From: a virus
DNA length: 64,000 nt
IMG/VR virus record: IMGVR_UViG_3300034104_004920
Span: 33,278 to 97,277 of that record
Reading direction: 5' to 3' (one strand)
Position 1 is the stretch's first letter, and every line of letters begins with the position of its first letter. The notes under the pieces are model-generated. The model was not told the DNA's origin. It searched no databases and was given only the letters and a program-made list of their open reading frames with translations. Shown in pieces: positions 1,019 to 58,062 of this stretch. The translations under genes and the position numbers were made by a program.

Positions 1019-1047
1019 TTGATTATACTTATCCTTTGTGATATAAT
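1019..1047 (+). promoter_or_regulatory. sigma70-type promoter
   Basis: TTGATT-17 nt-TATAAT upstream of AGGAG and ATG 1092. Confidence 0.75.
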
Positions 1048-1091
1048 TGTTACTATAAAAAAGCGCACCTATTTTTAATTAGGAGTTTAAT

Positions 1092-1676: not shown

Positions 1677-3277
1677 CTACGTACACTACTGTAGAAAATG
1701 AAAATGCTCCTAGCTTAGTAGTTGTCGACGATACCAGAGATATTATTGTTGTTACAACTGGTATTGGGCCTCGCGGAGAAACGGGCCCACAAGGTGAGGC
1801 CGGACCTCAAGGTATCCAAGGTATTCAGGGTGAAACAGGACCTCAAGGCGAGACCGGACCTCAAGGCGAGACCGGACCTCAAGGCGAGACCGGATCTCAA
1901 GGTATCCAAGGTCCTCAAGGTATTCAGGGTCCTCAAGGCGAGACCGGATCTCAAGGTATCCAAGGTCCTCAAGGTATCCAAGGTATTCAGGGTGAAACAG
2001 GACCTCAAGGTATCCAAGGTATCCAAGGTGAGACCGGTATGGGATTCACCATAGCCAAAACATATAGCAGTGTGGCATTACTTTTAGCAGACACTAGTCC
2101 TGCTAATATTTTAAGTGGGCAATTTGCTATTATTGATACAGGGGATCCAAACAATACAGATAATAATAGACTGTATTTATGGAACGGGTTATCGTACTCG
2201 TATATAACAGATATCAGTGGTTCTCAAGGTATTCAAGGCGAAACAGGTCCACAAGGTAGTCAAGGTATCCAGGGTATCCAAGGCGAAACAGGTCCACAAG
2301 GTATCCAAGGTATCCAAGGTATCCAAGGTATCCAAGGTGAGACCGGGCCTCAAGGTACGCAAGGTATCCAAGGCGAAACAGGTCCACAAGGTATTCAGGG
2401 CGAAACAGGTCCACAAGGTATTCAAGGCGAAACAGGTCCAATGCCTTGGAACCTGCCGGCTGCACCATACAACAATGGCATATCATATAATATTGGAGCT
2501 GCTGTAACATACAATGGGGGATATTATTATAGATCTGGTAATCCATTAAATCCAGGATATCCACCAACACCTGGTTCAATTAATGAATCTTGGACCCCTG
2601 TTGCCGATCGCGGTGAAACAGGACCTCAGGGTATTCAGGGCATTCAGGGAGAAACAGGTCCTCAAGGTATTCAGGGTCCTCAAGGTGAAACAGGACCTCA
2701 GGGTATTCAGGGCATTCAGGGAGAAACAGGTCCTCAAGGTATTCAGGGTCCTCAAGGCGAAACAGGGCCTCAGGGTCCTCAAGGTATTCAGGGTCCTCAA
2801 GGCGAAACAGGCGACATAGACCTTTTAGAAGTATACAGCGACATACTACCAGGAATAGCATCAATATACGATATAGGAAATCAAGATTTTCCGTGGTATA
2901 GTGCATATTTTCATGATAGTATAAATATTGGTACAAATAAGCTATATGACTTACCTGATGATGCTTTAGCCATATACAGCAGTTCTATAGTAACGAATGC
3001 CGACGTAATTGCAAATTCATTGCTTTTAGACGAGCTTTTTATAAATCAAAATATAATTACGCCATTAAAAACGCCACTATACGGCGAGCCTACTTTAATT
3101 ATACAAGGCAGCTTGGATGTGGTAGGAGATTGGTTAAAAATACCAAACAGCAGCAAAAAAATAGAACAACCGCAGAGCGGGCAGCTAAGAAGCAACACAC
3201 AAAGTTATTCGTATAAAAAAATGAGTACGGGTACTTTTTTTACTTTATCAAATTCAGAACAATACTATTTGCAATAA
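1673..3277 (+). CDS. collagen-like fibre protein
   Basis: three Gly-X-Y blocks (GET/GPQ/GIQ) separated by two globular inserts, one resembling a small carbohydrate-binding module (YNNGISYNIGAAVTYNGGYY...W). Confidence 0.9.
   Translation: MTTYTTVENENAPSLVVVDDTRDIIVVTTGIGPRGETGPQGEAGPQGIQGIQGETGPQGETGPQGETGPQGETGSQGIQGPQGIQGPQGETGSQGIQGPQGIQGIQGETGPQGIQGIQGETGMGFTIAKTYSSVALLLADTSPANILSGQFAIIDTGDPNNTDNNRLYLWNGLSYSYITDISGSQGIQGETGPQGSQGIQGIQGETGPQGIQGIQGIQGIQGETGPQGTQGIQGETGPQGIQGETGPQGIQGETGPMPWNLPAAPYNNGISYNIGAAVTYNGGYYYRSGNPLNPGYPPTPGSINESWTPVADRGETGPQGIQGIQGETGPQGIQGPQGETGPQGIQGIQGETGPQGIQGPQGETGPQGPQGIQGPQGETGDIDLLEVYSDILPGIASIYDIGNQDFPWYSAYFHDSINIGTNKLYDLPDDALAIYSSSIVTNADVIANSLLLDELFINQNIITPLKTPLYGEPTLIIQGSLDVVGDWLKIPNSSKKIEQPQSGQLRSNTQSYSYKKMSTGTFFTLSNSEQYYLQ
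1770..2815 (+). repeat. 9/18/27-bp tandem repeats encoding collagen triplets
   Basis: caaggtatc, ggcgaaacaggtccacaa and related units repeated in three blocks. Confidence 0.9.
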
Positions 3278-3289
3278 GGACATGTCACA

Positions 3290-4834
3290 ATGCCATACGT
3301 CAATTTTTTAAGTACAGACAATGATTGTGGAAATCCGGCTAGTAGTATAATGTATACCGAAGGATTTGGTGCAACACATATTACAGCCGGTTCTTTGTCA
3401 TTTCAGGGGACCACAGGAACATCTTCTGCGGGAAACTTTACAGTTTCCAGAGCCTATAAAAATATTTATAGATGGAGAGCTAGCTATTTATTAGTTGAAC
3501 TAGATTACTACTTTAAGTTTGGAGCAAGAGAATATAATAACTTTTTATTGTTAGGAAATGGTTACGTATTGTTTGGCGGTATTGAATTACTTACAAGTTT
3601 TGCCGATTATTTAGAACAAAATGCAGGCCAAAGTGACTACAGTGCTGAATCTTTTTCTAACACTGCTGGAACTGCTTATAACATTAAAAATAATGAGTAC
3701 GCATTATTTGCACCAACTTTGAGTAGTATTACCCTAAGTCAGTACGATAATTATGATTCTCCATATCCTTACTATGTAGAACTAGCTGAATATACAGGAG
3801 TAAAAAGAAAATTAAAATTACGTTGGATTGGACAAAACGGCGGCTATAATACTAATTTTCCAACCCCTTACCAGTATAATAATGCGCCTAACGATGGCGA
3901 ATATTCAAGTGATGCGAATTTAGTTGTAACGTATGAATTTTCCGAAAACGACGCAGTAAAATTAAGCCTAGATCAAAATGAATATGGTACCGCTAACAAT
4001 AGCAGTGTGTATTACCTAACAGGCAGACCGCTTGGATATTTTAACAATGATTTTACAGCTATAGAATCTGGTGAGATTTATAAAAATAAAAATAGTGGTG
4101 TACAAAATACTAGTTTCTTAGACAGTAGTGAATACACATATTCACAAAATTATAGCAGTGTACCCGCTAACAGAGTTTGGACTTTTAGTGGCACACCGAT
4201 TCAAGAATTACTAGAAACTATAGAGCATACAAAAGTAGAAGTTTATGGTTTTGGAAAGAATTCCGCTTGGTCAGAGCTTTCTGTAGGTGGGGCTGCTTAC
4301 AATATATTTCCATATGATAAAACCAACACAAAAAAATTTGCAACGGCACCCTTATCAGACTTAACAGAAAGAGAAGTAACGGGCAATTATATACTAGATA
4401 TAGATATGTCTAGTTATACTAGTAATAAACCTTTAGTTATATCTATTCCTGAATTACCCAACCTAGTTACCGGCCAAGGAAGTTCTAATATTAGATTTAA
4501 TTTTAAAAATCTAGATTTACCAAAGCATTCTGGTATTGTGGTAAAGTGTATTGTAAAATACAATGGCGGTAATTTAAGAGTCTACTTACCCTATATTAAT
4601 GGATATAATCCTTTAATACCCGATTCTTCAACCTATGATGGTATGACGAATCAATATAGTAGCGCTTATGTAAGCATATCTTCTTCGGTACTAAATTACA
4701 CTAGACTATTGGAGTTTTACATTGAAAATGTAGGTGGTATAGAGATAACAGACTACTATAACGTGTCGTATAAGTTTCCAGACGATAATAGTTACAAAGT
4801 AAGTTTTTTTGCTCCTGATTATGTAATTGTATAA
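3290..4834 (+). CDS. putative fibre tip / receptor-binding protein
   Basis: 514 aa, Y/N/S/T-rich; same reading frame as the collagen gene, 12 nt after its TAA. Confidence 0.45.
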   Translation: MPYVNFLSTDNDCGNPASSIMYTEGFGATHITAGSLSFQGTTGTSSAGNFTVSRAYKNIYRWRASYLLVELDYYFKFGAREYNNFLLLGNGYVLFGGIELLTSFADYLEQNAGQSDYSAESFSNTAGTAYNIKNNEYALFAPTLSSITLSQYDNYDSPYPYYVELAEYTGVKRKLKLRWIGQNGGYNTNFPTPYQYNNAPNDGEYSSDANLVVTYEFSENDAVKLSLDQNEYGTANNSSVYYLTGRPLGYFNNDFTAIESGEIYKNKNSGVQNTSFLDSSEYTYSQNYSSVPANRVWTFSGTPIQELLETIEHTKVEVYGFGKNSAWSELSVGGAAYNIFPYDKTNTKKFATAPLSDLTEREVTGNYILDIDMSSYTSNKPLVISIPELPNLVTGQGSSNIRFNFKNLDLPKHSGIVVKCIVKYNGGNLRVYLPYINGYNPLIPDSSTYDGMTNQYSSAYVSISSSVLNYTRLLEFYIENVGGIEITDYYNVSYKFPDDNSYKVSFFAPDYVIV

Positions 4835-4843
4835 GGTTTTATT

Positions 4844-5479
4844 ATGGAATTATACGCAAAACTAAATAATAGGCAAGAAGTTATTCAATTTCCAGTTTTA
4901 TTGCCTTATAAACTGGAAGCCGGACTTGCTAGGTATAATAATCTAGTATTAGTTAGTCAAGATGATAAACCAGAATACGTAGACTGGAAAAAACAATCTG
5001 TCCCAGTAGGTTTAAAAAAATCAATAGACTTTAAAAATCCAAAAAACTTTTTTAAAGCCGTTTATGAAGTAAAATCGGTTGTAGATAATACAACCGATTT
5101 TAAAACAAAACAAAATAAATTTTTAGAAGTTTACAATGAGTATAAAAATACAAACTACAAAGTATTTCAGCAAAAAGTAAAAGATCTAACAGGTGACTAT
5201 AAGCAGGAAGAGTTTGATACTTGGGACCAACAATTGGCTGAGGCAAAAGCCTATATAAGTACTAAAGAAGAAGGATTGCTATTAAAGAATATAAGCAATG
5301 AAAGAGGCATTTCATTACAAAATTTAGTAGATAAAATAATATCTAAATCTAATTCTTATAATTCTACTTATGGAAAATTATTGGGAAAATATAGAAAAAA
5401 CCAAGAAATACTAGACTCAATTGACTTAAAAAATGAAGCTACTTGGGACGGAGTAAACAACTATAATTGGAATTTATGA
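4844..5479 (+). CDS. tail-fibre-associated hypothetical protein
   Basis: Y..EE..TW..Q..EA.AY...LL..I...RG...LV.KI motif typical of proteins following tail fibres. Confidence 0.55.
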   Translation: MELYAKLNNRQEVIQFPVLLPYKLEAGLARYNNLVLVSQDDKPEYVDWKKQSVPVGLKKSIDFKNPKNFFKAVYEVKSVVDNTTDFKTKQNKFLEVYNEYKNTNYKVFQQKVKDLTGDYKQEEFDTWDQQLAEAKAYISTKEEGLLLKNISNERGISLQNLVDKIISKSNSYNSTYGKLLGKYRKNQEILDSIDLKNEATWDGVNNYNWNL

Positions 5480-7029
5480 TACCTAAACAAATTTGGCAAA
5501 CTTGGAAAAGTTTAAAACTACCAGAAGAATTAGAATCTTATGTTAACGGCTGGAAGACTTTAAATAAAGACTACAAACATACTATATCAACAGATATAGT
5601 ATGTAGACAATTAGTTCTGCAGCACTTCGGCCAGAGTGTGGTAGAACTGTACGACAGTCTACCACAATCTATAATGAGAGCTGATTTTTGGAGAATTTTA
5701 GTTTTATATATAAACGGCGGAATTTACTGCGATCTTGACTTAGAAGCTAAAAAACCAATAGAAGATATTATTAATATAAATTGTGATTTAATAGTCGTTA
5801 AAGATTTGGATAATATTGTAAATTTCTTTATAGCAGCTACCCCAAAACATCCGGTATTAAAAATTTGCATAGATTATATGCTAGAAGAAGCTAATAGCAT
5901 ACTAGCGTTAGATACGCAGAGTTTTGGGATGCACAGCTTACACAGAGCTTTCAGAGAATACTATAAAGTAATAGGAACAAACTATCCAAATAATAATGAA
6001 GTACAAACCTTGGATGTAAAACACTTAGAGCAGAAGAATGTACTTATACACCATGCAATAAGTGGTAATCCTAGTACGTATGATTATACCAGTTGGAGAG
6101 ATAGCAATAATTTAATGTTAAAAAATAGAAGTCTCTCTAAAGATATATTATTTTTTACAACATTTAATAAGTCAGGATTTGATCTTTATGGTCAAAGCTG
6201 GATTAAATCTTTTACACAAATATCCAACTATTACCCAAGCATAAAAGCAAAAATATATTACGAAGGCCCAAGTCTGCCTAATATAAGACATCCTAATTTA
6301 GAATGGGTTAATTTTAACACTGCTATACCACACCATAAAACTTGGAAAGCTGATTTTTTAATTAAATCTAAGCATGAAGAATATGTAAAAACAATGACAG
6401 TTAAATTCAGTCATAAAAGTTTTGTAATACAACACGTATTAGATACCTGTAAAAACAATTATCTAATTTGGTTAGATGGTGATTGTATTTTTTTACCTAG
6501 TGATTACACTAATTTTCCTACAAATATTTTGAATAATAAATTTTTAGCTTGTCAAGTGGAGGAAAATTGGGATTTAGATCACATAGAAAGTGGTATTCTT
6601 ATTTTTGATACTACAAATGAAAATACTAAAAAATTTAATGAAATTTTTAAAAATAATTATGTACCACAAACTTTAGTTATAATGGGCCAGCCATATGATG
6701 GATTTGTAATAAGTAAAACACTTATAAATCTAAATGCAGAATATGTTAATTTAAACAGTAATTATGGTTTGGGCGGCATACAGAGTGACCCATCAAGAAC
6801 CTTTCAAAATCCAGAATTAAAGTCAAAATTTATACATAATATAGGATGGACTGGTAAAAATAAGTACGAGTCTTGGGAAAGAGTTTTTAATAATGATCCG
6901 GTGTACACTACTATTAAAAAATTTCTATTTGGAGGCAGTGAGTCAAAGAAAGAAAAACTTACTAATCATGTAGAAAAGTTGAAAAATCTACGGGAAAAAA
7001 GAGATCTGTTCATAAAACAAAATGGATAA
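5476..7029 (+). CDS. two-domain glycosyltransferase (GT32-like + second GT-A domain)
   Basis: IPKQIWQTW, RADFWRILVLYINGGIYCDLD (DXD); second domain VKFSHK...YLIWLDGD. Confidence 0.85.
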   Translation: MIPKQIWQTWKSLKLPEELESYVNGWKTLNKDYKHTISTDIVCRQLVLQHFGQSVVELYDSLPQSIMRADFWRILVLYINGGIYCDLDLEAKKPIEDIININCDLIVVKDLDNIVNFFIAATPKHPVLKICIDYMLEEANSILALDTQSFGMHSLHRAFREYYKVIGTNYPNNNEVQTLDVKHLEQKNVLIHHAISGNPSTYDYTSWRDSNNLMLKNRSLSKDILFFTTFNKSGFDLYGQSWIKSFTQISNYYPSIKAKIYYEGPSLPNIRHPNLEWVNFNTAIPHHKTWKADFLIKSKHEEYVKTMTVKFSHKSFVIQHVLDTCKNNYLIWLDGDCIFLPSDYTNFPTNILNNKFLACQVEENWDLDHIESGILIFDTTNENTKKFNEIFKNNYVPQTLVIMGQPYDGFVISKTLINLNAEYVNLNSNYGLGGIQSDPSRTFQNPELKSKFIHNIGWTGKNKYESWERVFNNDPVYTTIKKFLFGGSESKKEKLTNHVEKLKNLREKRDLFIKQNG

Positions 7030-7717
7030 AAATATTTTTCAAATACTTATATGCGACGAACCAGCCTCTAATGATTTCAAATATTCTTTAAAACAAAAAA
7101 TTACTGATGTTTATAGTAATTATAACTACAACCTCTACGATAATGAGGCTATAAGAAATTTTTTATATTCCTTCGACAAAGATATACTTAATGCATATGA
7201 TAATTTATTACCTTATGCATTTAAGGCTGACTTGGCCAGATATTGTTTACTTTATGAATTTGGTGGTTGGTATTTTGATATATCTGTTTTTCCAATTTTT
7301 AAATATACTACAAATAAAACAGGTCTTGTATTTTTTAACACATTTTTTAAGATATTAGAAAATAGTATCATGTATTTTCAATCAAAACATGTACTGCTGG
7401 AAAAAACAATACGTATTTCCGTTGAAAATATTAATAATAAAAACTATGGCACTAGTCCTATAGATATAACTGGTCCTCTAGTATTGACTTCAGCATTTAA
7501 TTCTTTAGGTGCTGCTTCAAAAAGAAGTATTGAATACGGGTTATTTAATCTAGCTGATAAAAATGACATTTCTTCTAATAGACGGTACGACATAAAGAAA
7601 AAAAGATTTTCTAACTATAAAGATTATAAAAATGTTAGTGATATATCGTACTTAGGACTATCTGGAACAAACAATTATGTAGATATGTGGAAAGAGAAGA
7701 GTGTATACAGACAATAA
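7022..7717 (+). CDS. GT32-like glycosyltransferase
   Basis: PYAFKADLARYCLLYEFGGWYFDI, ITGP. Confidence 0.85.
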   Translation: MDKNIFQILICDEPASNDFKYSLKQKITDVYSNYNYNLYDNEAIRNFLYSFDKDILNAYDNLLPYAFKADLARYCLLYEFGGWYFDISVFPIFKYTTNKTGLVFFNTFFKILENSIMYFQSKHVLLEKTIRISVENINNKNYGTSPIDITGPLVLTSAFNSLGAASKRSIEYGLFNLADKNDISSNRRYDIKKKRFSNYKDYKNVSDISYLGLSGTNNYVDMWKEKSVYRQ

Positions 7718-8564
7718 AATAATACCATCAACCTTAAATCCTAGAGTAGAGGATGAAAAGTTTCAAAAAATACCAAAAATCATATATCAGACGTTTAAAT
7801 CAAATATAGTAAGTGATAAAATATATGAAGGTATTGAATCTTATATAAGTTTAAATCCTGATTATAGATACGAATTCTATGATGACGACAGGATGTGTAG
7901 TTATATAGATTCATATAATTGTAGTGATTTTAATTTTAATTTGGAAGAATTAAAAAAGGCATTTTACAACATAGTTCCACCTGCCGGCAAAGCGGATATT
8001 TGGCGATATTTAATCATATATGAGAATGGTGGCATATACACAGATATTGATAGTAAATGTATAAAACCATTTTCATCATACATTAATCCAGATGATGATA
8101 TAGTTACATGTTTAACAGGAATTGCTCATAATTACGACAATCCTACTGTAGTATGGAGACATTTATTTCCGCAATGGTTTTTGATTTATTCACCAAAATG
8201 TTCTATACTAAAGGAAATAATAGAAGAATGCGTAAAAGCAGTAAATACAAAAATTCCAGTGCCTAACTCAGAAGACTGCAAAAATATGTTGGAAAGATAC
8301 ACTGGTGTTTGTTTATCAAATTATGTGTACAGAAAGCTATTTAATTTTAAAGATAAAGATAAAGAGGCAAGATTGCAGCCAAGAGTATACAGCATAAAAC
8401 ATAGTAAAAACAAATATAATTTAGCTATACACGACAGTTTACCAGATATTTTTAACACAGCACTTATCAGTAAAAATTTCGAAAGATTCGAAGATTATAA
8501 AAAGGAATTATTAACAAATAATTCCAATCATTGGTTGAGCTATGATTCAATATTTAAAAGTTGA
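7701..8564 (+). CDS. GT32-like glycosyltransferase
   Basis: IPKIIYQTF, KADIWRYLIIYENGGIYTDID. Confidence 0.85.
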   Translation: MYTDNKIIPSTLNPRVEDEKFQKIPKIIYQTFKSNIVSDKIYEGIESYISLNPDYRYEFYDDDRMCSYIDSYNCSDFNFNLEELKKAFYNIVPPAGKADIWRYLIIYENGGIYTDIDSKCIKPFSSYINPDDDIVTCLTGIAHNYDNPTVVWRHLFPQWFLIYSPKCSILKEIIEECVKAVNTKIPVPNSEDCKNMLERYTGVCLSNYVYRKLFNFKDKDKEARLQPRVYSIKHSKNKYNLAIHDSLPDIFNTALISKNFERFEDYKKELLTNNSNHWLSYDSIFKS

Positions 8565-8570
8565 CTTTTA

Positions 8571-9077
8571 ATGATTAATCTTGATAAAAAATATACGGAA
8601 TATATTTTAAATAAAACAGATATATTCCAATATATTCATCCAAATGCGGTATCAGTTTTAGGTTTATTTACTGATTTTTTTATTTTGTACTTTATAAGCT
8701 CACATAACATTGTACTAGCAGGCATAGCAATTTTTATAAGATATTCCTGCGATACATTGGATGGTGGCATAGCAAGAAAATATAAGAAGGTAAGCGATCT
8801 AGGTGGGGCCTTAGATACTATTGCAGATAATACGCTTATATTTGTATTATCTTATTCTATATTGAAATTATACGGCAGTAATTACTCGTTATTAGTATCA
8901 GGCATAATAGTGGCTGCAAACCTGCTGTATATGTACAGAAAAAAAGCTTTGTTACATCATGAGCATTTGCATGATTCACGTAGTCTATGTGCTAAGATTT
9001 ATACCTTTGGTATGAATAATACTTGTATACTGTATGCTTTTATATACTTATGGATAGTTGCACTGATATGCTTTTAA
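8571..9077 (+). CDS. CDP-alcohol phosphatidyltransferase family membrane protein
   Basis: HPN, DTLDGGIARKYKKVSDLGGALDTIAD = DxxDGxxAR...GxxxDxxxD; several TM helices. Confidence 0.9.
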   Translation: MINLDKKYTEYILNKTDIFQYIHPNAVSVLGLFTDFFILYFISSHNIVLAGIAIFIRYSCDTLDGGIARKYKKVSDLGGALDTIADNTLIFVLSYSILKLYGSNYSLLVSGIIVAANLLYMYRKKALLHHEHLHDSRSLCAKIYTFGMNNTCILYAFIYLWIVALICF

Positions 9078-9787
9078 ATAAAAAAATAATAATTTGTGCT
9101 GGAGGAGATGGAGGACCAAAGTGGAATAGACATTTAGGCATTTCAAAACACATGATTACAGCATATGGTGAAGCTCTAGTTCACAGAATCCAACGACAGT
9201 TATTAGAATCTGGATTCAACAATATATATGTAGCTTGCTCTTACGAATACAAAGACACCTATCTATTAAAACATATAAAATATATAGAATCGCCAAAATT
9301 ATCTGGTGACTTAGGCGACTACTCATGTGTTTGGCATTATAAAAAATTTTTAGATGTTTATTCTACAACTGTTATATTATTTGCAGATGTTTATTACACA
9401 GATGAATTTATAAACGTTCTAAAGCATGATTCAGGCAATCATTTTAAAATATATGGTAGAAGCGATGCTTCTCATATAACTAAAAATTGGAGGCAAGGAG
9501 AACCATTTGCCATAATTTTAAGTAGTAATGCTGTTAAAAAATACTTTAAATCTTTGAAAGAAGTAATGCTGGTTCTTCCAGATTTTATACAAAAAGGTAA
9601 AGCTATACGAGAAGATATAGGAAAATATACTTATAGAAAATTTGTTGGTATACCATATGAAGCGCCAGGTAATGTAACCGAAGACACACATTGGCACGAA
9701 TGGAACGATTTAACGGATGATTTTGATGATCCAAACGATTGGAAAATAAAATCTGAATTGTTTCCTAATATATTCTACATAAAATGA
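9068..9787 (+). CDS. NTP transferase (LicC/IPCT-like cytidylyltransferase)
   Basis: IIICAGGDG..W......KHMI...GEALVHR N-terminal motif; LFADVY; DDFD. Confidence 0.7.
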   Translation: MLLNKKIIICAGGDGGPKWNRHLGISKHMITAYGEALVHRIQRQLLESGFNNIYVACSYEYKDTYLLKHIKYIESPKLSGDLGDYSCVWHYKKFLDVYSTTVILFADVYYTDEFINVLKHDSGNHFKIYGRSDASHITKNWRQGEPFAIILSSNAVKKYFKSLKEVMLVLPDFIQKGKAIREDIGKYTYRKFVGIPYEAPGNVTEDTHWHEWNDLTDDFDDPNDWKIKSELFPNIFYIK

Positions 9788-10464
9788 CTCTTGGAAATGT
9801 ACTATTTTTAGGCAGATATAACTGTGAAGTCAGCAATAGTGCTATGCGCTATTTACAAAAACACTGTAATAAACTTGATGTAATATGGTCGAAGGATATG
9901 TCAGAGAGGTTGCCTGAATTTGTAAATAATTGGGAAGGCGATTACATTGTATCTTTTATGAGTTTTTTCATCTTGCCAAAGTCTTTGTTGAATAAAGCAA
10001 AAAAAGATGCTATAAATTTTCACCCAGGACCGCCAAAGTATCGTGGCAGAGGGGCGGCTTCTTTTGCTATATACAATGACGACAGTATATTTGGTGTTAC
10101 CGCGCATCTTATAGACGAATTAATAGACAATGGAAAGATAGTTGCTGTACTAGAGTTTTCCATAGAAGAAGGCGATACTGTTGAAACAATAGTTTACAAG
10201 AGTAGAGAGGCTTTGTATGAATTATTTACCCTAGTGATTGATAGTATATTATTAGATGGTAATTATATACAAAAATCAATTAATAGTTGTATATATCAGT
10301 GGAGTGGTAAACTTAGGTCTATTAAAGAAATAGATAGTTTACGAAAAATTAAACTAGATATTACAAAAAATGAATTGGATAAAATAATAAAAGCCACAGC
10401 TATAGGTACTACTGTACCATACATAGAACTATATGGACATAAGTTTGTATTTAGAGAGACGTGA
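9784..10464 (+). CDS. formyltransferase (NDP-sugar N-formyltransferase-like)
   Basis: AINFHPGPPKYRG...GVTAHLIDELIDNGKI. Confidence 0.85.
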   Translation: MTLGNVLFLGRYNCEVSNSAMRYLQKHCNKLDVIWSKDMSERLPEFVNNWEGDYIVSFMSFFILPKSLLNKAKKDAINFHPGPPKYRGRGAASFAIYNDDSIFGVTAHLIDELIDNGKIVAVLEFSIEEGDTVETIVYKSREALYELFTLVIDSILLDGNYIQKSINSCIYQWSGKLRSIKEIDSLRKIKLDITKNELDKIIKATAIGTTVPYIELYGHKFVFRET

Positions 10465-10467
10465 TAT

Positions 10468-11241
10468 ATGGTAAAAGATATCGTTATTGTAACTGGTGGA
10501 TTTGATCCAATACATTCAGGACATATTGCTTATATTCAGGATGCTTCTACCTACGGAAAAGTAGTTGTTGGTGTTAATAGCGACAATTGGCTTGTACGAA
10601 AAAAAGGTAAAGTATTTATGCCGTTTCAAGAGCGTGCAGCTGTAGTACAGAGTATGAGAAATGTTATGTCTGTTATTGACTTCGATGACTCAGACAATTC
10701 AGCCTGTGATGCTATTAACAAAGTACGAAAAATGTACCCACATAACAAAATATTATTTGTGAATGGTGGTGATCGCACAGCAGAAAATATTCCTGAAATG
10801 CGCGTTAATGATACCAATTTAGAATTTATATTTGGAGTTGGTGGTACAAACAAGTTGAATAGTAGCAGCTGGATACTTAAAGAATGGCAAAAGCCTTTAA
10901 AGTTTTCAAAGCCTTGGGGTTACTACACTGTTTTAGACGAAACTAATGCGCATGTAAAAGTAAAAAAATTACATGTTATTCCAAAAGCATCTCTTAGTAT
11001 GCAGAGACATTTTAAAAGAAATGAACTTTGGTTTGTAGCAAACGGAGTAGCGTCGCTAGAACTTTTAGACCAAGATAAAAATAAATATACTCTAACATAC
11101 AATAAGTATGACCGTATAGATATTCCTTTAAACAGTTGGCATAGACTGCATAATGAATCAGAGGATATATTAGAAGTAATAGAAGTACAATACGGCTTGG
11201 AATGTTCCGAGGAGGATATAGAACGAATCTATGCTTTATAA
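10468..11241 (+). CDS. cytidylyltransferase-like (HxGH) domain fused to a mannose-6-phosphate isomerase type II-like cupin
   Basis: TGGFDPIHSGH, VGVNSD, NGGDR; C-terminal KPWGYY...LSMQRHFKRNELW...HRL...IEVQYG...EEDIER. Confidence 0.85.
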   Translation: MVKDIVIVTGGFDPIHSGHIAYIQDASTYGKVVVGVNSDNWLVRKKGKVFMPFQERAAVVQSMRNVMSVIDFDDSDNSACDAINKVRKMYPHNKILFVNGGDRTAENIPEMRVNDTNLEFIFGVGGTNKLNSSSWILKEWQKPLKFSKPWGYYTVLDETNAHVKVKKLHVIPKASLSMQRHFKRNELWFVANGVASLELLDQDKNKYTLTYNKYDRIDIPLNSWHRLHNESEDILEVIEVQYGLECSEEDIERIYAL

Positions 11242-11257
11242 ATAAAGGAGTCCCAAT

Positions 11258-11722
11258 ATGGACCCTATTACTGCAATAGCTATGGCGAGTACTGCATTGG
11301 GTACAATTAAAAGCGCTATTAACACTGGAAAGGAAATTCACGAAGTAACCAGTGAAATAGGCAAATTTTTTGGAGCCGTAACAACCGCAAGGAGTATTCC
11401 AAAAAAGAAAAAGTCTGTTTTTAAAAAGTTATTGGATAGAGGGTCCGTAGAGCAAGAAGCTCTGGAAACAATTGTCAATCAGAAAAAGCTGGAGCAGATG
11501 GAGTCTGAACTACGCGAGTTAATCGTGTATACTTATGGTGTAGAAACCTACAGAGACATGATTATCTTGCGTAGAAAGATAAAACTGGACAGAGAGTTAG
11601 AAGAAAAGAAAGAGCTTTTGAAAAGAAAAGAACTGTTTGAAAACTATATTTATGCAGCCACCATACTTGGATGCGTAGGGGTAATAGCTTGGATAACAAT
11701 CGTAATACTACAAAATATATAA
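11258..11722 (+). CDS. hypothetical membrane-anchored coiled-coil protein
   Basis: AGGAG RBS; C-terminal TM helix. Confidence 0.6.
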   Translation: MDPITAIAMASTALGTIKSAINTGKEIHEVTSEIGKFFGAVTTARSIPKKKKSVFKKLLDRGSVEQEALETIVNQKKLEQMESELRELIVYTYGVETYRDMIILRRKIKLDRELEEKKELLKRKELFENYIYAATILGCVGVIAWITIVILQNI

Positions 11723-11726
11723 AATC

Positions 11727-12194
11727 ATGGAACAAGTATTGTGGATTTTAGGGTTCTTGCCCAAAGCTTTCTGGTTTCTTTTGTTGATAATCTCTTTTTT
11801 AGTGTTGTTATTGAATAGGCTTTTAAATAAAATTCCAGGATTTTATTTGTACAGTGGTTACATAAAAACCGCCTCCGTAATAGCACTGATTGTTTCATCT
11901 TGGTTTATTGGGTACAACTACAATGAAACCAAATGGCAAACAGAAATACAGCAAACAAAACAAAAGATAGAAGTACTGGAACAAAAGAATAAAGACTTGA
12001 GTAACACACTAGAAACCCGTTCTCAAGAAAAGATTGTTGAAATACAAGAAAAAACAAGAAACGTAATAAAGTTTGTAGAAAAGCAAGTGTTCCAAGACAA
12101 AGAAGTAATTAAGTATGTAGAAAGTTGTCCAAAACTGCCAGATGCTGTATTAGAAGCACATAATAGAGCAGCTCACTTGGAGAAGCAAAAATGA
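11727..12194 (+). CDS. putative i-spanin (Rz-like)
   Basis: N-terminal TMs, periplasmic coiled coil, C-terminal Cys; overlaps a lipoprotein gene; next to endolysin. Confidence 0.65.
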   Translation: MEQVLWILGFLPKAFWFLLLIISFLVLLLNRLLNKIPGFYLYSGYIKTASVIALIVSSWFIGYNYNETKWQTEIQQTKQKIEVLEQKNKDLSNTLETRSQEKIVEIQEKTRNVIKFVEKQVFQDKEVIKYVESCPKLPDAVLEAHNRAAHLEKQK

Positions 12195-12448
12195 AAATTT
12201 TTGTAGGTTTAGTACTGAGTTTGTTATTAACCGGCTGTTGGAAAACTATTCCCACTTTTCCAACACCTCCGCCTTCAGCCATGGAAAGTTGCCCCGTTTT
12301 AGAAAAAGCAAATGACGCAGATTTAGAGTCTTTTATTAAAACAGTAATAAAAAACTATGAGTCTTATTATTTGTGTAAAAATAAAACAGATACTTGGATA
12401 AAGTGGTATAGTGATACTTCAAAAAACTATAAGGAATCTATTAAATGA
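12191..12448 (+). CDS. putative o-spanin (Rz1-like lipoprotein)
   Basis: lipobox LLLTGC, Pro-rich linker, two further Cys. Confidence 0.75.
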   Translation: MKIFVGLVLSLLLTGCWKTIPTFPTPPPSAMESCPVLEKANDADLESFIKTVIKNYESYYLCKNKTDTWIKWYSDTSKNYKESIK

Positions 12449-13056
12449 TTTCAGAAGATAAATTAAAGGAATTGATTCCTAAAAACAAATATGTCCCTCA
12501 GTGGTCAAAAGCTTTGAATTTAATACTTCCAGACTATGAGATTAATAGTACACTGAGAATTGCTGCATTTTTAGCACAGTGTATTCATGAAAGTGGTGGT
12601 TTTATTTTCTTAACAGAAAACCTAAACTACAAGGCTGAAAGTTTAATGAGAGTATGGCCACGTCATTTCCCTACTTTAGAAATTGCAAAAAGCTATGAGC
12701 GTAATCCACAAAAGATTGCAAATAAGGCGTACGCAAACAGAATGGGTAATGGGGATGAAAACAGTGGCGACGGTTGGCGATACTGCGGACGCGGGTTAAT
12801 TCAATTAACTGGTAAATCAAACTATCAAGCATTTGCAGACTCAATTGAAACATCACTACAAGATATTCCAGAATACCTTCAGACATTCGAAGGGGCGGTT
12901 CAAAGTGCTTGCTGGTTCTGGGAAACAAATAACTTGAATGTGTTAGCTGACAAAAAAGATATTTTGGGATTAACTAAAAAGATCAATGGCGGAACTATTG
13001 GACTAGATGATAGAATAAAACACTACGAACATGCACTCCATGTTTTAGGAGGCTAA
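12445..13056 (+). CDS. endolysin, glycoside hydrolase family 19
   Basis: AAFLAQCIHESGG, ENLNY, GRGLIQLTG, SACWFW, INGGTIGLDDR. Confidence 0.92.
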   Translation: MISEDKLKELIPKNKYVPQWSKALNLILPDYEINSTLRIAAFLAQCIHESGGFIFLTENLNYKAESLMRVWPRHFPTLEIAKSYERNPQKIANKAYANRMGNGDENSGDGWRYCGRGLIQLTGKSNYQAFADSIETSLQDIPEYLQTFEGAVQSACWFWETNNLNVLADKKDILGLTKKINGGTIGLDDRIKHYEHALHVLGG

Positions 13057-13058
13057 TA

Positions 13059-13358
13059 ATGTTAAATGACAAAAAATTGTTTTTGGGATTATTGGCACTA
13101 TTAATAATTCCTATCACGGCATCCTTTATAATGTTTGGAAAAGATCATTTTAGATATCAATGTCAGGATCCAAAAAATTGGAGCTCAGAACAGTGTAAGC
13201 CGCCTATATGTGATGTTACGCGCTCTTGCCCAGAACACGTATTTAAAGGTCAAAGAGATCCGCGATTAGGGCCACCACCACCAGCCGTATTTACCGCACA
13301 GCCCCCAAGCTGTCCTAGTAGTTGTGTTGCAGGAGCACAAGATGGAAAACAAAAATAA
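13059..13358 (+). CDS. lysis-region membrane protein with Cys-rich periplasmic domain
   Basis: TM helix then FRYQCQDP..W...CKPPIC....CP. Confidence 0.55.
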   Translation: MLNDKKLFLGLLALLIIPITASFIMFGKDHFRYQCQDPKNWSSEQCKPPICDVTRSCPEHVFKGQRDPRLGPPPPAVFTAQPPSCPSSCVAGAQDGKQK

Positions 13359-13758
13359 TTTTATGTACACAGAAGAACAACTCATGGCAAGATTAAAGTT
13401 TTTTATAGGTGTATGTCTTGCACTAACACTGTTCGGAATTGTGTTTGTGGTACTGTACAGCATTATATTTGTTGCTCAACCATTGAATGCAATAAGTCCA
13501 ATAGATCAAAAGTTCTTTGAATTGATTGTTCCTATCGCAACTTTTTTGACTGGTACATTGAGCGGTATTATGTTGGCTGGTAATAAAAAAGAAGATCAAG
13601 AAGCAATGTTGAGTGCTCAAAAACTGGCAAACGACAACTTTGCAGAAACAAAAAAGACTATTGCACGAGTTCATGAAGAAAAAAAGGAACCGGCTTTAGG
13701 TCTTCCACAACCACAAGTGTTAAAAGCCCCAGTTCAACCACCACATCCGGAGATTTAA
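13342..13758 (+). CDS. putative holin (2 TM)
   Basis: two hydrophobic helices, charged C-terminus, lysis cluster. Confidence 0.5.
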   Translation: MENKNNFMYTEEQLMARLKFFIGVCLALTLFGIVFVVLYSIIFVAQPLNAISPIDQKFFELIVPIATFLTGTLSGIMLAGNKKEDQEAMLSAQKLANDNFAETKKTIARVHEEKKEPALGLPQPQVLKAPVQPPHPEI

Positions 13759-13759
13759 A

Positions 13760-13957
13760 ATGAAAAAAGTTTTTGCACTGTTAGTTTCCTTTAGTTTGTT
13801 GATGCCGGTATATGCGGCAGAAACAAAAGAAGTATGCAAGCCCAAGATGACAAAAGATAACAAAGAGGTTTTGGATAAAAATAAGAAACCTGTTATGGAC
13901 TGCAAAAAAATAAAAGTTCATAAAAAGCATGAAGGAACTCCTGTACCTTCAAAATAA
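13760..13957 (+). CDS. small secreted basic protein
   Basis: signal peptide (VYA-A), two Cys, Lys-rich. Confidence 0.55.
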   Translation: MKKVFALLVSFSLLMPVYAAETKEVCKPKMTKDNKEVLDKNKKPVMDCKKIKVHKKHEGTPVPSK

Positions 13958-13980
13958 TCTTTAACTAACCAAGGAATAGC

Positions 13981-14667
13981 ATGGCAGTATCAAGTGGTAA
14001 AAAAGCTAGAAAAGCTCATAACTCGGAAGACTCTTTTTTTGCAACAGAATTTAAAGAAGTCAAACCACTTAATTATATCCAAGAAACATATTTAGATGCT
14101 ATAAAACATAACGATATAGTGTTTGGTGTAGGTAGTGCAGGTACTGGCAAAACCTACATTGCTGCAAATTACGCAGCACATGAACTGTATCACAGAAACA
14201 TAGAAAAAGTAATACTAACACGTCCAAATATTGAAACTGGCAAAGGTCTTGGATTTTTGCCGGGTACATTGGAGGAAAAATATCAGCCGTACTTAGAACC
14301 ATTTGATTCAATATTTTCTAGATCTCTTGGCAAAGGATTTTATGAATACTGCTTGAAGAACAAAAGCATTGAGCCGCGTCCATTAGGCTTTATGAGAGGC
14401 ACTACGTTTGAAAACTGTGTTGTTTTAGTCGACGAGGCTCAAAACTGCACAAAGACCGAACTAAAAATGCTATTGACAAGAGCTGGTAGAAATTGTAAAA
14501 TAATAGTTTCAGGAGACACCGATCAGTGTGATATTGAAAACAGTGGTCTGCAAGACGCAGTAAACCGCCTGAGTCACATAGAAGGAATAGAAGTAGTTCG
14601 CTTCTTAGACTCTGACATTGTTCGTAGCAGACTTTGTAAGAATATAATTATGGCTTATAGGAATTAA
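13981..14667 (+). CDS. phoH: PhoH-like ATPase
   Basis: GSAGTGKT, GLGFLPGTLEEK, MRGTTF, DEAQN, GDTDQCD, DIVRS. Confidence 0.95.
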   Translation: MAVSSGKKARKAHNSEDSFFATEFKEVKPLNYIQETYLDAIKHNDIVFGVGSAGTGKTYIAANYAAHELYHRNIEKVILTRPNIETGKGLGFLPGTLEEKYQPYLEPFDSIFSRSLGKGFYEYCLKNKSIEPRPLGFMRGTTFENCVVLVDEAQNCTKTELKMLLTRAGRNCKIIVSGDTDQCDIENSGLQDAVNRLSHIEGIEVVRFLDSDIVRSRLCKNIIMAYRN

Positions 14668-14668
14668 A

Positions 14669-15439
14669 ATGGAAGAACTAAAAAGTTGCCCTGTTGGTAC
14701 ACTGTACTCAGAGGTAAATCTACAAAATCATATTTTTGCGTTAGAACTTGGTGAGTACGGACCAGCAGACCCTCGTCAGCCCAATACAGAGTTTTGGCAA
14801 AACAAAATGAAAATCTGGGACGTAAATGAGGGCACCGCAATAATGAGAGTTTGCACCAGCTGTCATTTTGCAGATAAAACTGCAGAAATGCAAGACTGCA
14901 TTATTGAAGGACCGGGCGGCGAGTTCAAAGAAAGCGATCTTCCATTGAACCCTGTTTGGGCAGAGATTGATGGATTACCGTACTACTACTGTACCAGATG
15001 GAACATGACAATCAATCCACTGCGTACATGCAACGGTTGGCAACCAGAAGACTGGGAGCCCGACGAAGACGAAGACGAGGAACACTCTAAAAACTACGTC
15101 GAAAAAGCACTTACTTACAAACCTACAACCGGAATGGCAAGTGCAGCGCGCAGAGCATTAAAGTGGAAAGACGAAGGTCAGCGTGGAGGTACACGAGTAG
15201 GATTGGCACGAGCTAATCAGCTTGTGCGCCGTGAAAACCTGAGTGAGAGTACTGTGTTACGTATGTATTCTTTCTTTAGTCGACACGCTGTTGACAAACA
15301 AGCAACAGGATTTAGTAGTGGCGAAGAAGGTTTTCCTAGCCCTGGCCGAGTTGCGTGGGACTTGTGGGGTGGTGACGCTGGCGAGAGTTGGAGCAAAGCC
15401 AAGCGTGATCAAATCATGAGAAGACGAGAAAGCAAGTAA
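14669..15439 (+). CDS. two-domain hypothetical protein
   Basis: Cys-containing N-domain, acidic linker, basic C-domain (GGTRVGLARANQL...RMYSFFSRH...AWDLWGG). Confidence 0.6.
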   Translation: MEELKSCPVGTLYSEVNLQNHIFALELGEYGPADPRQPNTEFWQNKMKIWDVNEGTAIMRVCTSCHFADKTAEMQDCIIEGPGGEFKESDLPLNPVWAEIDGLPYYYCTRWNMTINPLRTCNGWQPEDWEPDEDEDEEHSKNYVEKALTYKPTTGMASAARRALKWKDEGQRGGTRVGLARANQLVRRENLSESTVLRMYSFFSRHAVDKQATGFSSGEEGFPSPGRVAWDLWGGDAGESWSKAKRDQIMRRRESK

Positions 15440-18611: not shown

Positions 18612-20636
18612 TTAACGTATTGGACAAGCGCCAGTACTGCAGTCTTGATCTAGCAATTCATCGAAACTATTGCTGGTTTCGATATCTACTGGTAACAACT
18701 TACGAACATATTCTTCATATGCTTCTTTGGTTGTTACTTCTTGAGGCAGATAAGGATACCCTAAATCTTTAGCAGTCTTGCTTGGATCGTTACGGAATAA
18801 GAAACTTACGGCAACATAACTATCCCAGTTTTGGTATAGCCAGTTTACGATTTCTTCTGTTTCATCCACGCTGTAAGAAATTGTACAGCTCACATTTTGT
18901 TGACAGTAATTGTCCATCAACATCTTGTAAACCTCTAACTGCTGAACAGCTGAGTCTAGGTTTACTTCTTTGTTGTCGACTACATCAAACTCTACTCCGT
19001 CGTTTTTAACTGGAAATGTAATCAGTGTAGCACTGTCGTCGTAGGGATGGTTGAAAACATTATAGTTTGCACTACGTAGCTTTTCCACTAGTGGATCGTA
19101 CTTTGAAAAAGCAACATTGTTGAAAATGTACTTTCCAAGTGGCTTGTGCATTCCTTCCAGTGAATCATAGCACTTTGATTGTGTACCTTCTGGCTTCAAA
19201 GCTGTGATATTCTTTGGATAGGACAAGTCCAGTTCTTTAGCCATTTCGTACGCAGCGGCTGTAACAACACGCTCTAAACGTCGATAGTCATAAGCCTTCA
19301 TGTCATTGCGACCGGCTACACCCATCAAGCTAACACCACACAGCCGCAGGTGTTCGTTGTTTAAGTGCCAGCTTTCTTGTAGGATACCGTCTCTGAAATC
19401 TACAACAGTCTGACGGTAATTGGCGCGAGCAATAATTTTTGCTGCACGCAATAACCCCAAGTTGTCGTTTTTGAACTTCAACACATCAATACTGACCAGG
19501 TTGCAGAAGCCCTTATTTGGCAACAAGATCTCTGCACAAGGATTCATTCCAACTGCCCAAGGTGCACGAGCACGAAGTTGTTGGCCGTTGATTAGTCCAG
19601 GCTCACCATTACCACCCTTGTTGATCTTTTCAAACCAAGCAGTTAGTTCTTCGTAGCTGGGCTTTTTCCAGAAAATAATAGAATTATTACTCTGTGCACG
19701 ATGGTTATTGCCGTTTTCCCAAATGTTGTACTTTGCTTCTGCAAAGTCGTAGATCACTGGACTGTGATCATCCAACACAGCAATCTGTGCGCTCCGACGA
19801 GTGCTCAACACAGTACCCAACAGATTTACAATGTCTAAGATGTCGATTTCTGATAGTAATGAATCTGCCTTTGCATTTAAGATTTCATAGACCTTTGTGT
19901 AGGCTTTTGTCAAACCAACATCGCCCTGACTCAACCAGCCGTAGTTCTTTAAACGAACGCCAGGCTTGCGAATCTGTGAAAAGTCCAACACCAGCTTTTG
20001 GGCTGCAAACTTGCCGGCCAACAGTTTGCCAATACTCTTGGCCCATGCCTCAGCTGAGTCTCCGATTCTAATGGTCCAGGTCTTGGTAGTATTGTCCCAA
20101 GTCTCTGTATTGGTTTCGATTCCTTTATCGGTAGAATTATTACTGCGTACAATCTCCAGTTCTGGAATGTACTTTCGGAATCCGGTTAAGGAACCGCTAA
20201 CAGGACGGAAGCCTACTCCACAGCCCTGCAGTAGCAGCCAGAACACATCTACTACGTCGTATACAGTTTCCACATTTGTAAAGCTGCAATTAAACATACT
20301 GGCTTCACGACGACGAGCAATGTCTGTTCCACCCAACCACAGGGTACGACCCGCAACCGCTACCTTGCGATCGTGCAGTAGTGCCTTCAACTCTTGTAGT
20401 TCCGATTCTTCTTTTTCACTTAAAGCCACCCAGTCTTTTGACTCGCGTACAATGTTGTGAAGTGCAACGTCTGGAATTAGGTTGTGTGTTTTTGCTCGTT
20501 CCCACAAAAACCGTTGATGATTTACAACTCGTTCAACAGTTTGAGCCCAAGTCTCAAAAACTGTTCCCTCGTCGTTCAATGGACGGTTGTAGGTTCGTCG
20601 TGTAATTACTTGTGCTCTTGTACTAGGATTATTCAT
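18612..20636 (-). CDS. nrdJ: class II (adenosylcobalamin-dependent) ribonucleotide reductase
   Basis: RRTYNR, AGRTLWLGG, FNCSF, GCGVGF, NPCAEI, KPEGT, C-terminal CSTGACPIR; no beta-subunit gene nearby. Confidence 0.88.
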   Translation of the reverse strand: MNNPSTRAQVITRRTYNRPLNDEGTVFETWAQTVERVVNHQRFLWERAKTHNLIPDVALHNIVRESKDWVALSEKEESELQELKALLHDRKVAVAGRTLWLGGTDIARRREASMFNCSFTNVETVYDVVDVFWLLLQGCGVGFRPVSGSLTGFRKYIPELEIVRSNNSTDKGIETNTETWDNTTKTWTIRIGDSAEAWAKSIGKLLAGKFAAQKLVLDFSQIRKPGVRLKNYGWLSQGDVGLTKAYTKVYEILNAKADSLLSEIDILDIVNLLGTVLSTRRSAQIAVLDDHSPVIYDFAEAKYNIWENGNNHRAQSNNSIIFWKKPSYEELTAWFEKINKGGNGEPGLINGQQLRARAPWAVGMNPCAEILLPNKGFCNLVSIDVLKFKNDNLGLLRAAKIIARANYRQTVVDFRDGILQESWHLNNEHLRLCGVSLMGVAGRNDMKAYDYRRLERVVTAAAYEMAKELDLSYPKNITALKPEGTQSKCYDSLEGMHKPLGKYIFNNVAFSKYDPLVEKLRSANYNVFNHPYDDSATLITFPVKNDGVEFDVVDNKEVNLDSAVQQLEVYKMLMDNYCQQNVSCTISYSVDETEEIVNWLYQNWDSYVAVSFLFRNDPSKTAKDLGYPYLPQEVTTKEAYEEYVRKLLPVDIETSNSFDELLDQDCSTGACPIR

Positions 20637-48863: not shown

Positions 48864-48966
48864 TGGTAGGAGAGGTGGGAATCGAACCCACATTACTCCG
48901 CCTTATCTAGACGGTGCTCTACGAGTTTATAAGGCTCGCCCTTAGGCCAATATTAGCAACTCTCCC
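48864..48966 (-). tRNA. 103-nt tRNA-Ile-like RNA with two anticodon-like arms (UAU and GAU)
   Basis: GGGAGAG/CUCUCCU-A-CCA; arm 1 GCGAG-C-CUUAUAA-A-CUCGU; arm 2 CCGUC-UAGAUAA-GGCGG; canonical T-arm. Confidence 0.7.
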
Positions 48967-49055
48967 ATAAGTTAGCATACATTAAAATATCCTTCAGTAA
49001 TTGCAATACTATCTCCCGTTTGCATCGGGCGGAATATTTGTATGCTAACTTATGG
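48965..49055 (-). ncRNA. stem-closed RNA cassette
   Basis: perfect 17-bp inverted repeat ccataagttagcataca / tgtatgctaacttatgg. Confidence 0.45.
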
Positions 49056-49056
49056 A

Positions 49057-49181
49057 AAGAAAGCGGTCTACTATTACACGCTGGTTACACTGTCCAGTCG
49101 TTACCGTTACGCTAGTGAGGCATCCTAGTCGCCAGTAATAGCATTATAGGTTCAGCAGAATTATCCTGCAACCGCTTTCTT
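49057..49181 (-). ncRNA. stem-closed multibranch RNA
   Basis: aagaaagcggt / accgctttctt; inner GCUAUUAC/GUAAUAGU and three short hairpins. Confidence 0.5.
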
Positions 49182-49184
49182 GTC

Positions 49185-49260
49185 TGGTAGGAAAGAGTGG
49201 GATCGAACCACTGACCTATGCTTTATCAAAACATTGCTCTACCAACTGAGCTACTTTCCC
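49185..49260 (-). tRNA. tRNA-Ile(GAU)
   Basis: UU-GAU-AA, A73, CCA. Confidence 0.92.
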
Positions 49261-50683: not shown

Positions 50684-50759
50684 TGGTGGAAATAGTTAGA
50701 TTCGAACTAACGACCAATGCCGTATGAAGACACTGCTCTACCTGCTGAGCTATATTTCC
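50684..50759 (-). tRNA. tRNA(CAU): elongator Met or Ile2
   Basis: UU-CAU-AC, paired G1-C72, A73, CCA. Confidence 0.85.
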
Positions 50760-50760: not shown

Positions 50761-50836
50761 TGGTTGCGGTGCCCTGGAGTCGAACCAGGTTTCTCTGGCT
50801 TATGAGGCCAGCGGATTGCCATCTTCCTCGCCCGCT
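50761..50836 (-). tRNA. initiator-like tRNA-Met(CAU)
   Basis: CU-CAU-AA, unpaired 1:72, 3' end CCGCAACCA. Confidence 0.8.
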
Positions 50837-57967: not shown

Positions 57968-58062
57968 GACCCTTTGTAGGCAGGATTCGAACCTGCAAGT
58001 GGCTTCTACCACCACCGGCCCCAATGCGGGCCTATGTTTACCAGTTTCCATCACTACGGGTC
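57967..58062 (-). ncRNA. tRNA-like RNA (class II scaffold) lacking a canonical anticodon loop
   Basis: D-arm, variable arm, T-arm GCAGG-UUCGAAU-CCUGC; acceptor GACCC-GUAG / CUAC-AAA-GGGUC. Confidence 0.65.

Follow-up and report, generated by a model that had tools for sequence, protein, structure and literature searches.

What would a phage do with a tRNA gene that carries two consecutive anticodon-type arms, both of them specifying isoleucine, and which arm would be seen by which partner? The question is raised by a 103-nt gene at 48864-48966 on the minus strand of the window, as we call the whole 64,000-nt stretch of viral DNA analysed here (39.8% G+C), which comes from a 97.3-kb virus contig with an estimated completeness of 92%. 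The gene sits in a phage cluster of 24 tRNA and tmRNA genes and, on the evidence of its sequence, the Rfam tRNA model RF00005 and blastn homologues, it is a genuine phage tRNA gene.

Anatomy, family and surroundings of the gene

Read 5' to 3' along the minus strand, the gene opens with the acceptor strand GGGAGAG (48960-48966), which pairs over 7 bp with CUCUCCU (48868-48874), followed by the D-stem 5' strand G10 C11 U12 A13 (48954-48957). Next come a D-loop part, AUAUUGGCCU (48944-48953), which includes G18 and G19 and is supported by R15-Y48 covariation, and a candidate D-stem 3' strand, AAGG (48940-48943), here called proximal, with G26 behind it at 48939; the whole D-like segment reads UUGCUAAUAUUGG. 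Arm 1 (48922-48938) has the stem CGAGC/ACUCG, with a C31.A39 mismatch in the window sequence, and the loop CUUAUAA, whose UAU at 48929-48931 is framed by U33 and A37 in a canonical anticodon loop that reads AUA. The linker UAGAGCA (48915-48921) holds the distal D-stem 3' strand, A-G-C at 48916-48918, and ends in an N26-like spacer, A at 48915. Arm 2 (48898-48914) pairs CCGUC with GGCGG and closes a UAGAUAA loop, in which A33 precedes G-A-U-A-A (GAU at 48905-48907), such that the loop is a copy of the tRNA-Ile(GAU) anticodon loop with U33A as its sole difference. A connector of variable-loop size, AGUAAU (48892-48897; 4-6 nt across the family), leads to the T arm GUGGG-UUCGAUU-CCCAC (48875-48891), and the gene ends with A73 at 48867 and an encoded CCA at 48864-48866. 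Both arms are hairpins of 5 bp and 7 nt, the acceptor/T arrangement is 7/5, and a reading of the sequence alone turned up no feature suggestive of an intron. The sequence and segmentation given in an earlier note on this DNA match the minus strand of the window exactly.

The Rfam tRNA model matches 48867-48966 over its full length (1-71) with 35.9 bits against a cut-off of 29, aligning the first hairpin as the anticodon arm and the second as 27 nt inserted into the variable region; the RF00005 hallmarks (7-bp acceptor, 5-bp T stem with a GGUUCGAnUCC loop, G18G19, R15-Y48) are all present. ARAGORN makes no call for the 103-nt gene in the window. Elsewhere it labels two-arm genes wrongly, as tRNA-Glu(ctc), tRNA-Gly(ccc), tRNA-Arg(ccg) or a tRNA-??? 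whose anticodon has 4 bases (six loci among the examples), and the public annotations of those phages are probably wrong or incomplete at the two-arm gene. Two homologues in isolated phages are annotated merely as a 98-nt "tRNA-Ile".

The design is not confined to one contig. We found it in more than 190 distinct sequences from isolated phages, IMG/VR contigs and bacterial genomes, the bacterial copies comprising 68 genome stretches, mostly of Xanthomonadales, with near-identical copies in several genera of that order. Searches with blastn returned homologues of ~95 nt in unrelated phages of Klebsiella, Pectobacterium, Vibrio, Xanthomonas and Escherichia, spanning about 94% of the gene in 15 GenBank phage records, and pattern scans of IMG/VR gave more than 112 contigs with the family among the matches listed. 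Conservation of the second loop in homologues, the check that had been proposed for this locus, was assessed by a loop-unbiased IMG/VR scan in which only the D region and T loop were fixed; it yielded 85 stretches, which reduced to 72 distinct sequences and 69 true members. Because both loops (UAU and AGAUAA) are kept in 69/69 of these members, the objection that the second loop is not conserved does not stand. The arm 1 loop reads CUUAUA in 64 of the 69 and UUUAUA in 5, and family-wide it is always canonical (C/U32, U33, U-A-U, A37). The arm 2 loop is (C/U)-A-G-A-U-A-A throughout the family; its position 33 is A in more than 90% of members (more than 112 stretches among the matches listed), and U or C in about 11 real cases. 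The discriminator A73 is present in 96/96 relatives and invariant in a 111-sequence set, and CCA is encoded in 87/96 relatives.

Covariation was scored in the set of 111 distinct relatives. All four helices (the acceptor stem, the stems of both arms and the T stem) covary, with a score that 0/500 shuffles reach, and sliding the partners by 1-3 columns drops the paired cells from 92-96% to about 37-49%. All seven acceptor pairs are changed on both sides (99.9% of cells paired), the T stem is paired in 99.8% of cells, and all five stem pairs covary in arm 1 as in arm 2. At the tertiary level, A 48951 (tRNA position 16, two after A14) covaries with U 48892, which immediately precedes the T stem; the two form a Levitt-type R15-Y48 pair, a contact typical of the core of an L-shaped tRNA, that is AU in 87 sequences, GC in 24 and unpaired in 0 of 111. 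Conservation and covariation rule out a chance structure or a pseudogene. Together, the Rfam score, the covariation and the loop conservation bear out the original proposal of a tRNA with two consecutive anticodon-type arms, both for isoleucine.

An ordinary tRNA-Ile(GAU) belongs to the same cluster (49185-49260, minus strand; ARAGORN and Rfam) and has a similar acceptor stem, GGGAAAG. It lies about 218-219 nt upstream of the two-arm gene, in agreement with the ~220 nt given earlier, and a normal tRNA-Ile(GAU) also stands beside many relatives; because of this company, here and in those relatives, the two-arm gene is not the GAU supplier, as the earlier note had held. The 218-nt spacer between the two genes (48967-49184, minus strand) itself folds as a pair of long hairpin domains (-72.8 kcal/mol, z = -6.2; stability matched in 0/200 shuffles), the second of which ends exactly at the 5' end of the two-arm tRNA; no Rfam family matched the spacer, and its hairpins could be a processing element or a small RNA of a new kind.

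Several other features of the cluster and of related genomes deserve mention in their own right. A tRNA-like gene with the loop CUCAUAA, and hence a CAU anticodon, lies at 50765-50835 (minus strand), detected by Rfam (39.5 bits) but not by ARAGORN, directly upstream of an ARAGORN tRNA-Met(CAU) at 50684-50759; one of these two CAU tRNAs may be a lysidine-type tRNA-Ile2. At 57972-58060 (minus strand), ARAGORN reports a 'tRNA-???' whose anticodon loop has 6 nt (2-base anticodon), whose acceptor stem is interrupted and which has a long extra arm; it scores under the Rfam cut-off and may be a class II tRNA that is degenerate or of unusual build. The tmRNA of the phage (40016-40425, minus strand) is a permuted, two-piece RNA of betaproteobacterial type (RF01850, 114 bits; RF04321, 131.5 bits) with the tag ANDEVFALAA, similar to the tags of relatives (ANDEQFALAA, ANDESFALAA). 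In one IMG/VR contig (L095), a two-arm gene of the window's layout (13191-13291) and an 89-nt ARAGORN tRNA-Ile(tat) (14087-14175) stand ~800 nt apart. On the chromosome of Stenotrophomonas sp. S11A1a (L521, 3300-8000), the two-arm copy adjoins a KfrA-like gene and a Gabija-like pair of an OLD-family nuclease and a UvrD-type helicase, and these neighbours place it at the edge of a mobile/defence island.

Two D-stem strands and two possible cloverleaves

Members of the family come in several layouts. The commonest, which is that of the window and which we call type L, has a connector of 6-9 nt containing AGC ahead of arm 2. Type S, with 14 sequences, has a closed 4-bp D arm, after which come the UAU arm and, beyond a connector of 1-2 nt, the arm with the GAU loop, giving a class-II shape. 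Some bacterial copies take a third form, with a mini-hairpin, CCC-GCAA-GGG, between the two arms.

The connector of type L proved informative. The earlier note had observed that UAGAGCA mimics the 3' side of a D arm, so that two cloverleaves are possible, and the comparison supports two alternative cloverleaves because the distal AGC covaries with positions 10-12. Among 145 distinct type L sequences, the distal strand pairs with G10-C11-U12 in 145/145, and in the 111-sequence alignment in 333/333 cells. Pair 10-25' is G-C in 142 sequences, U-A in 2 and G.U in 1; pair 11-24' is C-G in 145/145; and pair 12-23' is U-A in 139, C-G in 5 and G-C in 1, corresponding to the triplet variants GCC/GGC in 5 and GCG/CGC in 1. 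An IMG/VR-wide scan for distal triplets of AG followed by a base other than C gave two members, both AGA and both with U10, and the same kind of scan of metagenomes gave one, AGU with G10, a wobble pair; the IMG/VR scan gave no G24' variant. The distal strand also stands always exactly 1 nt before the stem of arm 2, like positions 25-26-27 of a tRNA.

The proximal strand tells a different story at one of its pairs. In the window, where it reads AAGG, C11-G24 and U12-A23 are the only pairs it can make. Across the 145 type L sequences, the proximal 11-24 pair is kept in 144 and the 12-23 pair in 136, and the 10-25 pair is present in 30 and missing in 115 (present in 2/111 in the other set). Phage copies are fully paired in the distal D stem in 114/114 cases against 4/114 for the proximal one, and both D-stem 3' strands are intact in 25/31 bacterial copies. 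In an example from Stenotrophomonas, Xanthomonas and Luteimonas, AGAGC-G-arm 1 is followed by AGAGC-A-arm 2, and from such sequences the module of D-stem 3' strand, N26 and anticodon arm looks to have been tandemly duplicated.

Given the invariant distal pairing as against the loss of the proximal 10-25 pair, the best-supported cloverleaf for the window would use arm 2 (GAU) as its anticodon arm, with a variable loop of 4-6 nt behind it, and place arm 1 in the D loop. The alternative drawing is the class-II-like one picked by Rfam. Nearest-neighbour energies, in which tertiary contacts are ignored, cannot decide between the two predicted folds, which lie within 0.5 +/- 0.9 kcal/mol of each other in phage copies; in bacterial copies, by the same calculation without tertiary contacts, the class-II-like fold is favoured by 2.0 +/- 1.4 kcal/mol.

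Three further candidate structures were set aside. An extension of the variable-arm stem (GC...GU), drawn from the single-sequence minimum-energy fold, loses the partner of C25' in several relatives when these are inspected by eye; a small GCC/GGC hairpin in the D region clashes with the covarying first pair of arm 1; and a kissing interaction of UUAU in arm 1 with AUAA in arm 2 is a trivial outcome of AU-rich isoleucine anticodons.

Probable reading of AUA and a proposed part for the second arm

Two classic constraints on the bacterial genetic code are that AUA must be told apart from AUG and that its reading depends on lysidine. The phage makes heavy but uneven use of the codon: AUA accounts for 51% of isoleucine codons in the tail-fibre block (62-15439, plus strand; 41 per 1000 codons), 27% in the replication block and 1 of 34 in the ribonucleotide reductase gene (18612-20636, minus strand), which suggests that the late structural genes rely most on the phage's own AUA reader. 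No TilS-type domain and no class I synthetase, IleRS included, is encoded in the 92%-complete phage genome.

The meaning of AUA in this phage was examined in two helicases, the ribonucleotide reductase being left aside because only 1 of its 34 isoleucine codons is AUA. In the DnaB-like helicase, 105 homologues carry isoleucine at 77% at AUA positions, 89% at AUU, 83% at AUC and 3% at leucine positions; the leucine frequency is 0.05 at AUA positions against 0.89 at leucine positions. At the codon level, across 79 related contigs, the AUA positions of the window align mostly with AUU/AUC (45%), and the AUA codons of the relatives align with AUU/AUC of the window (57%). In the second helicase, compared with 94 distant representatives, AUA positions hold I 0.41, V 0.19 and L 0.18, close to the AUU positions (I 0.40, V 0.21, L 0.14) and apart from the leucine positions (I 0.12, L 0.39). 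Because the AUA columns match the AUU/AUC columns and not the leucine columns, recoding of AUA to leucine or serine in this phage is unlikely.

How, then, might a UAU tRNA be charged? A UAU tRNA-Ile is a poor substrate for E. coli IleRS, and the solution of Mycoplasma mobile is a single changed IleRS residue (PMC3575796). The bacterial isoleucine identity set (PMC9976931) consists of anticodon-loop positions and A73 with minor stem pairs, which in E. coli are C4-G69, U12-A23 and C29-G41. In the two-arm gene, the IleRS loop determinants G34 A35 U36 A37 A38 are found on arm 2, arm 1 carrying U34, and they reach the anticodon position only in the fold with the distal D stem. As to the minor pairs, C4-G69 is not conserved among the 111 sequences (AU 50, CG 30, UA 19, GC 12), nor is C29-G41, since the 29-41 pair varies in both arms; U12-A23 is kept, as a distal UA in 139/145 type L sequences with the other six covarying as C-G or G-C.

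From these observations, our best explanation of the gene is an AUA-reading isoleucine tRNA charged by IleRS through arm 2, an account to which, taken as a whole, we assign an even chance. One component, a real AUA-reading isoleucine tRNA, we regard as probable; the other, arm 2 as the handle for IleRS, is credible to a degree that falls just short of even. We infer from the sequence that the two-arm RNA is expressed and charged with isoleucine. The product would read AUA through the UAU of arm 1 and be charged by the host IleRS, with the G34-A35-U36-A37-A38 of arm 2 and A73 offsetting the poor acceptance of U34 by the ordinary enzyme; the need for lysidine, and with it for TilS, would be removed, the UAU arm reading AUA directly.

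A more specific version of this account would have the tRNA alternate between two states. Either cloverleaf can form, because each arm has its own D-stem 3' strand and one-base spacer. In the GAU fold, with arm 2 at the anticodon position and arm 1 looped out from the D loop, the RNA would be in the form readable by IleRS; in the UAU fold, where arm 1 takes over the anticodon position and leaves arm 2 as a long extra arm, it would be in the form usable by the ribosome; and because both anticodons mean isoleucine, neither state would miscode. Such a bistable tRNA, in which a swap of D-stem 3' strands decides whether IleRS is offered the GAU arm or the ribosome the UAU arm, seems to us rather doubtful. 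Type S and the mini-hairpin form share both loops but have no second D strand, which means that a single function of arm 2 in every member cannot hinge on the D-stem swap, and in these forms arm 2 is placed where IleRS is not known to reach. The wider account, charging through arm 2, is weakened too by the lack of conservation of C4-G69 and C29-G41. Plain tRNA(UAU) genes of 74-78 nt, with A73 and no second arm, are moreover common in viral contigs, and the extra arm is therefore no general requirement for a UAU tRNA. Finally, the two CAU tRNAs of the phage might represent an existing lysidine-type supply for AUA, which would speak against the necessity of the two-arm tRNA.

Some of these same observations would sit well with a working AUA-reading tRNA-Ile in which arm 2 is a long extra arm for a partner other than IleRS (perhaps an enzyme modifying the UAU loop, a processing factor or a feature limiting AUG misreading) and the distal AGC serves core packing only. 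The class-II-shaped members, with their closed 4-bp D arm, bear the same loop on a true variable arm; plain tRNA(UAU) genes lack arm 2; and since UAU misreads AUG on E. coli ribosomes (PMC3575796), an extra control is plausible. Nevertheless, the invariant bases are precisely the G34-A35-U36-A37-A38 of tRNA-Ile, for which no other known reader fits better than IleRS, and packing alone leaves unexplained both the Watson-Crick covariation of the distal strand with positions 10-12 and its 1-nt spacing. We consider this explanation unlikely, and charging by IleRS through arm 2 remains the reading we prefer.

The A33 of arm 2, which should disable decoding, raises the thought that this copy of the tRNA-Ile(GAU) loop is bait. 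Phage tRNA clusters have been proposed to counter anticodon nucleases, and the two-arm RNA could, instead of or besides acting as an adaptor, be a decoy or shield whose GAU loop attracts a nuclease or toxin, of the host or of a competitor, that cuts tRNA-Ile(GAU), or it could titrate a factor that binds tRNA-Ile and so protect translation during infection. That A33 is found in more than 90% of members, and that one bacterial copy neighbours an island of defence type that includes an OLD nuclease and a UvrD helicase, would suit such a role. A decoy, however, has no need of a canonical UAU loop, of A73-CCA or of a covarying acceptor stem; the high use of AUA amounts to a direct translational need; and no tRNA-Ile-specific defence nuclease was identified in this analysis. 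A decoy is, in our judgement, quite improbable.

Could arm 2 itself decode? The gene would then be a variant of tRNA-Ile(GAU) in the distal-D-stem cloverleaf, with arm 1 as an accessory insertion in the D loop, and the distal stem, the better conserved of the two in phage copies, does yield a cloverleaf of textbook class I form, its variable loop 4-6 nt long; ARAGORN, moreover, calls a tRNA-Ile(gat) inside the Xanthomonadales copies. Against this, U33 is near-universal in tRNA anticodon loops and arm 2 has A33 in its place; the product would be redundant with the adjoining normal tRNA-Ile(GAU); arm 2 cannot be the anticodon arm in the class-II-shaped members; and the canonical, invariant UAU loop is left unexplained. 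We hold this to be very improbable. Charging by LeuRS or SerRS, with AUA read as leucine or serine, is hardly credible despite the class-II-like length, A73 and the precedents of leucine-charged long-arm UAU tRNAs (PMC3333845) and of allo-tRNA(UAU) (PMC5389517), since homologues carry isoleucine, not leucine, at AUA positions at a rate like that of AUU/AUC and the acceptor/T arrangement is 7/5 and not 8/4 or 9/3.

Significance and comparison with known systems

If the preferred reading, an AUA-reading tRNA charged through arm 2, is correct, the identity signal (the GAU loop) and the decoding signal (the UAU loop) of one tRNA would be split over two arms. We know of no other natural synthetase determinant that derives from a duplicated anticodon arm, and this would be the first. 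Should the two-cloverleaf switch be real as well, it would constitute functional conformational isomerism in an elongator tRNA. There are practical consequences too: genes that ARAGORN misses or mis-names (tRNA-???, Glu, Gly, Arg) in many genomes distort tRNA inventories and codon-adaptation analyses, and a compact identity handle orthogonal to the anticodon could be of use in engineering. Phages of E. coli, Klebsiella, Pectobacterium and Vibrio, and the chromosomal copies in Stenotrophomonas and Xanthomonas, offer systems in which these ideas are testable.

Full-text literature searches gave no description of the two-arm design, nor did searches for key terms within papers on allo-tRNAs, non-canonical tRNAs and tRNA identity. 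The nearest functional parallels are the tRNA-Ile2 of Mycoplasma mobile (PMC3575796) and the suppressor of a tilS deletion in Bacillus subtilis (PMC3919564), which likewise read AUA with UAU, have A73 and bypass lysidine. Those are ordinary class I tRNAs of ~76 nt, whereas the two-arm RNA has 103 nt and, unlike them, a second arm displaying GAU and a second D-stem 3' strand; furthermore, the M. mobile tRNA is accepted through a changed IleRS (Arg865), and the other only weakly. The lysidine-type tRNA-Ile2(CAU) of many phages is likewise a phage-supplied reader for the rare codon AUA, but it depends on the host TilS, which the two-arm RNA should not need because its U34 is encoded.

In shape, the closest relatives are the class II tRNAs (Leu, Ser, Tyr, Sec), in which a further hairpin likewise separates the anticodon arm from the T arm; the literature searched describes no isoleucine tRNA of class II. 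In the two-arm RNA, by contrast, the extra arm is a 5-bp/7-nt copy of an anticodon loop between connectors of 6-8 nt and 4-6 nt, and the 5' connector of the window's subtype pairs with the D-stem 5' strand. The closed D arm of class II, with its extra arm 1-2 nt after the anticodon stem, is absent from the window (2 proximal pairs, 7-nt connector) and occurs within the family only in the 14 type S relatives. The nev-tRNAs of nematodes (PMC3333845) and the allo-tRNAs of bacteria (PMC5389517) are likewise long-armed and many have a UAU anticodon. However, nev-tRNAs are charged with leucine, and the AUA positions of the window behave as isoleucine and not as leucine; allo-tRNAs have 8/4 or 9/3 acceptor/T stems and serine identity as against the 7/5 found here; and the two-arm RNA differs from both in the invariance of its extra-arm loop. 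The two-arm tRNA fails at least one defining feature of each of these closest known systems and, if its charging through the GAU arm holds true, would take its place beside lysidine and the changed IleRS as a third natural solution for AUA.
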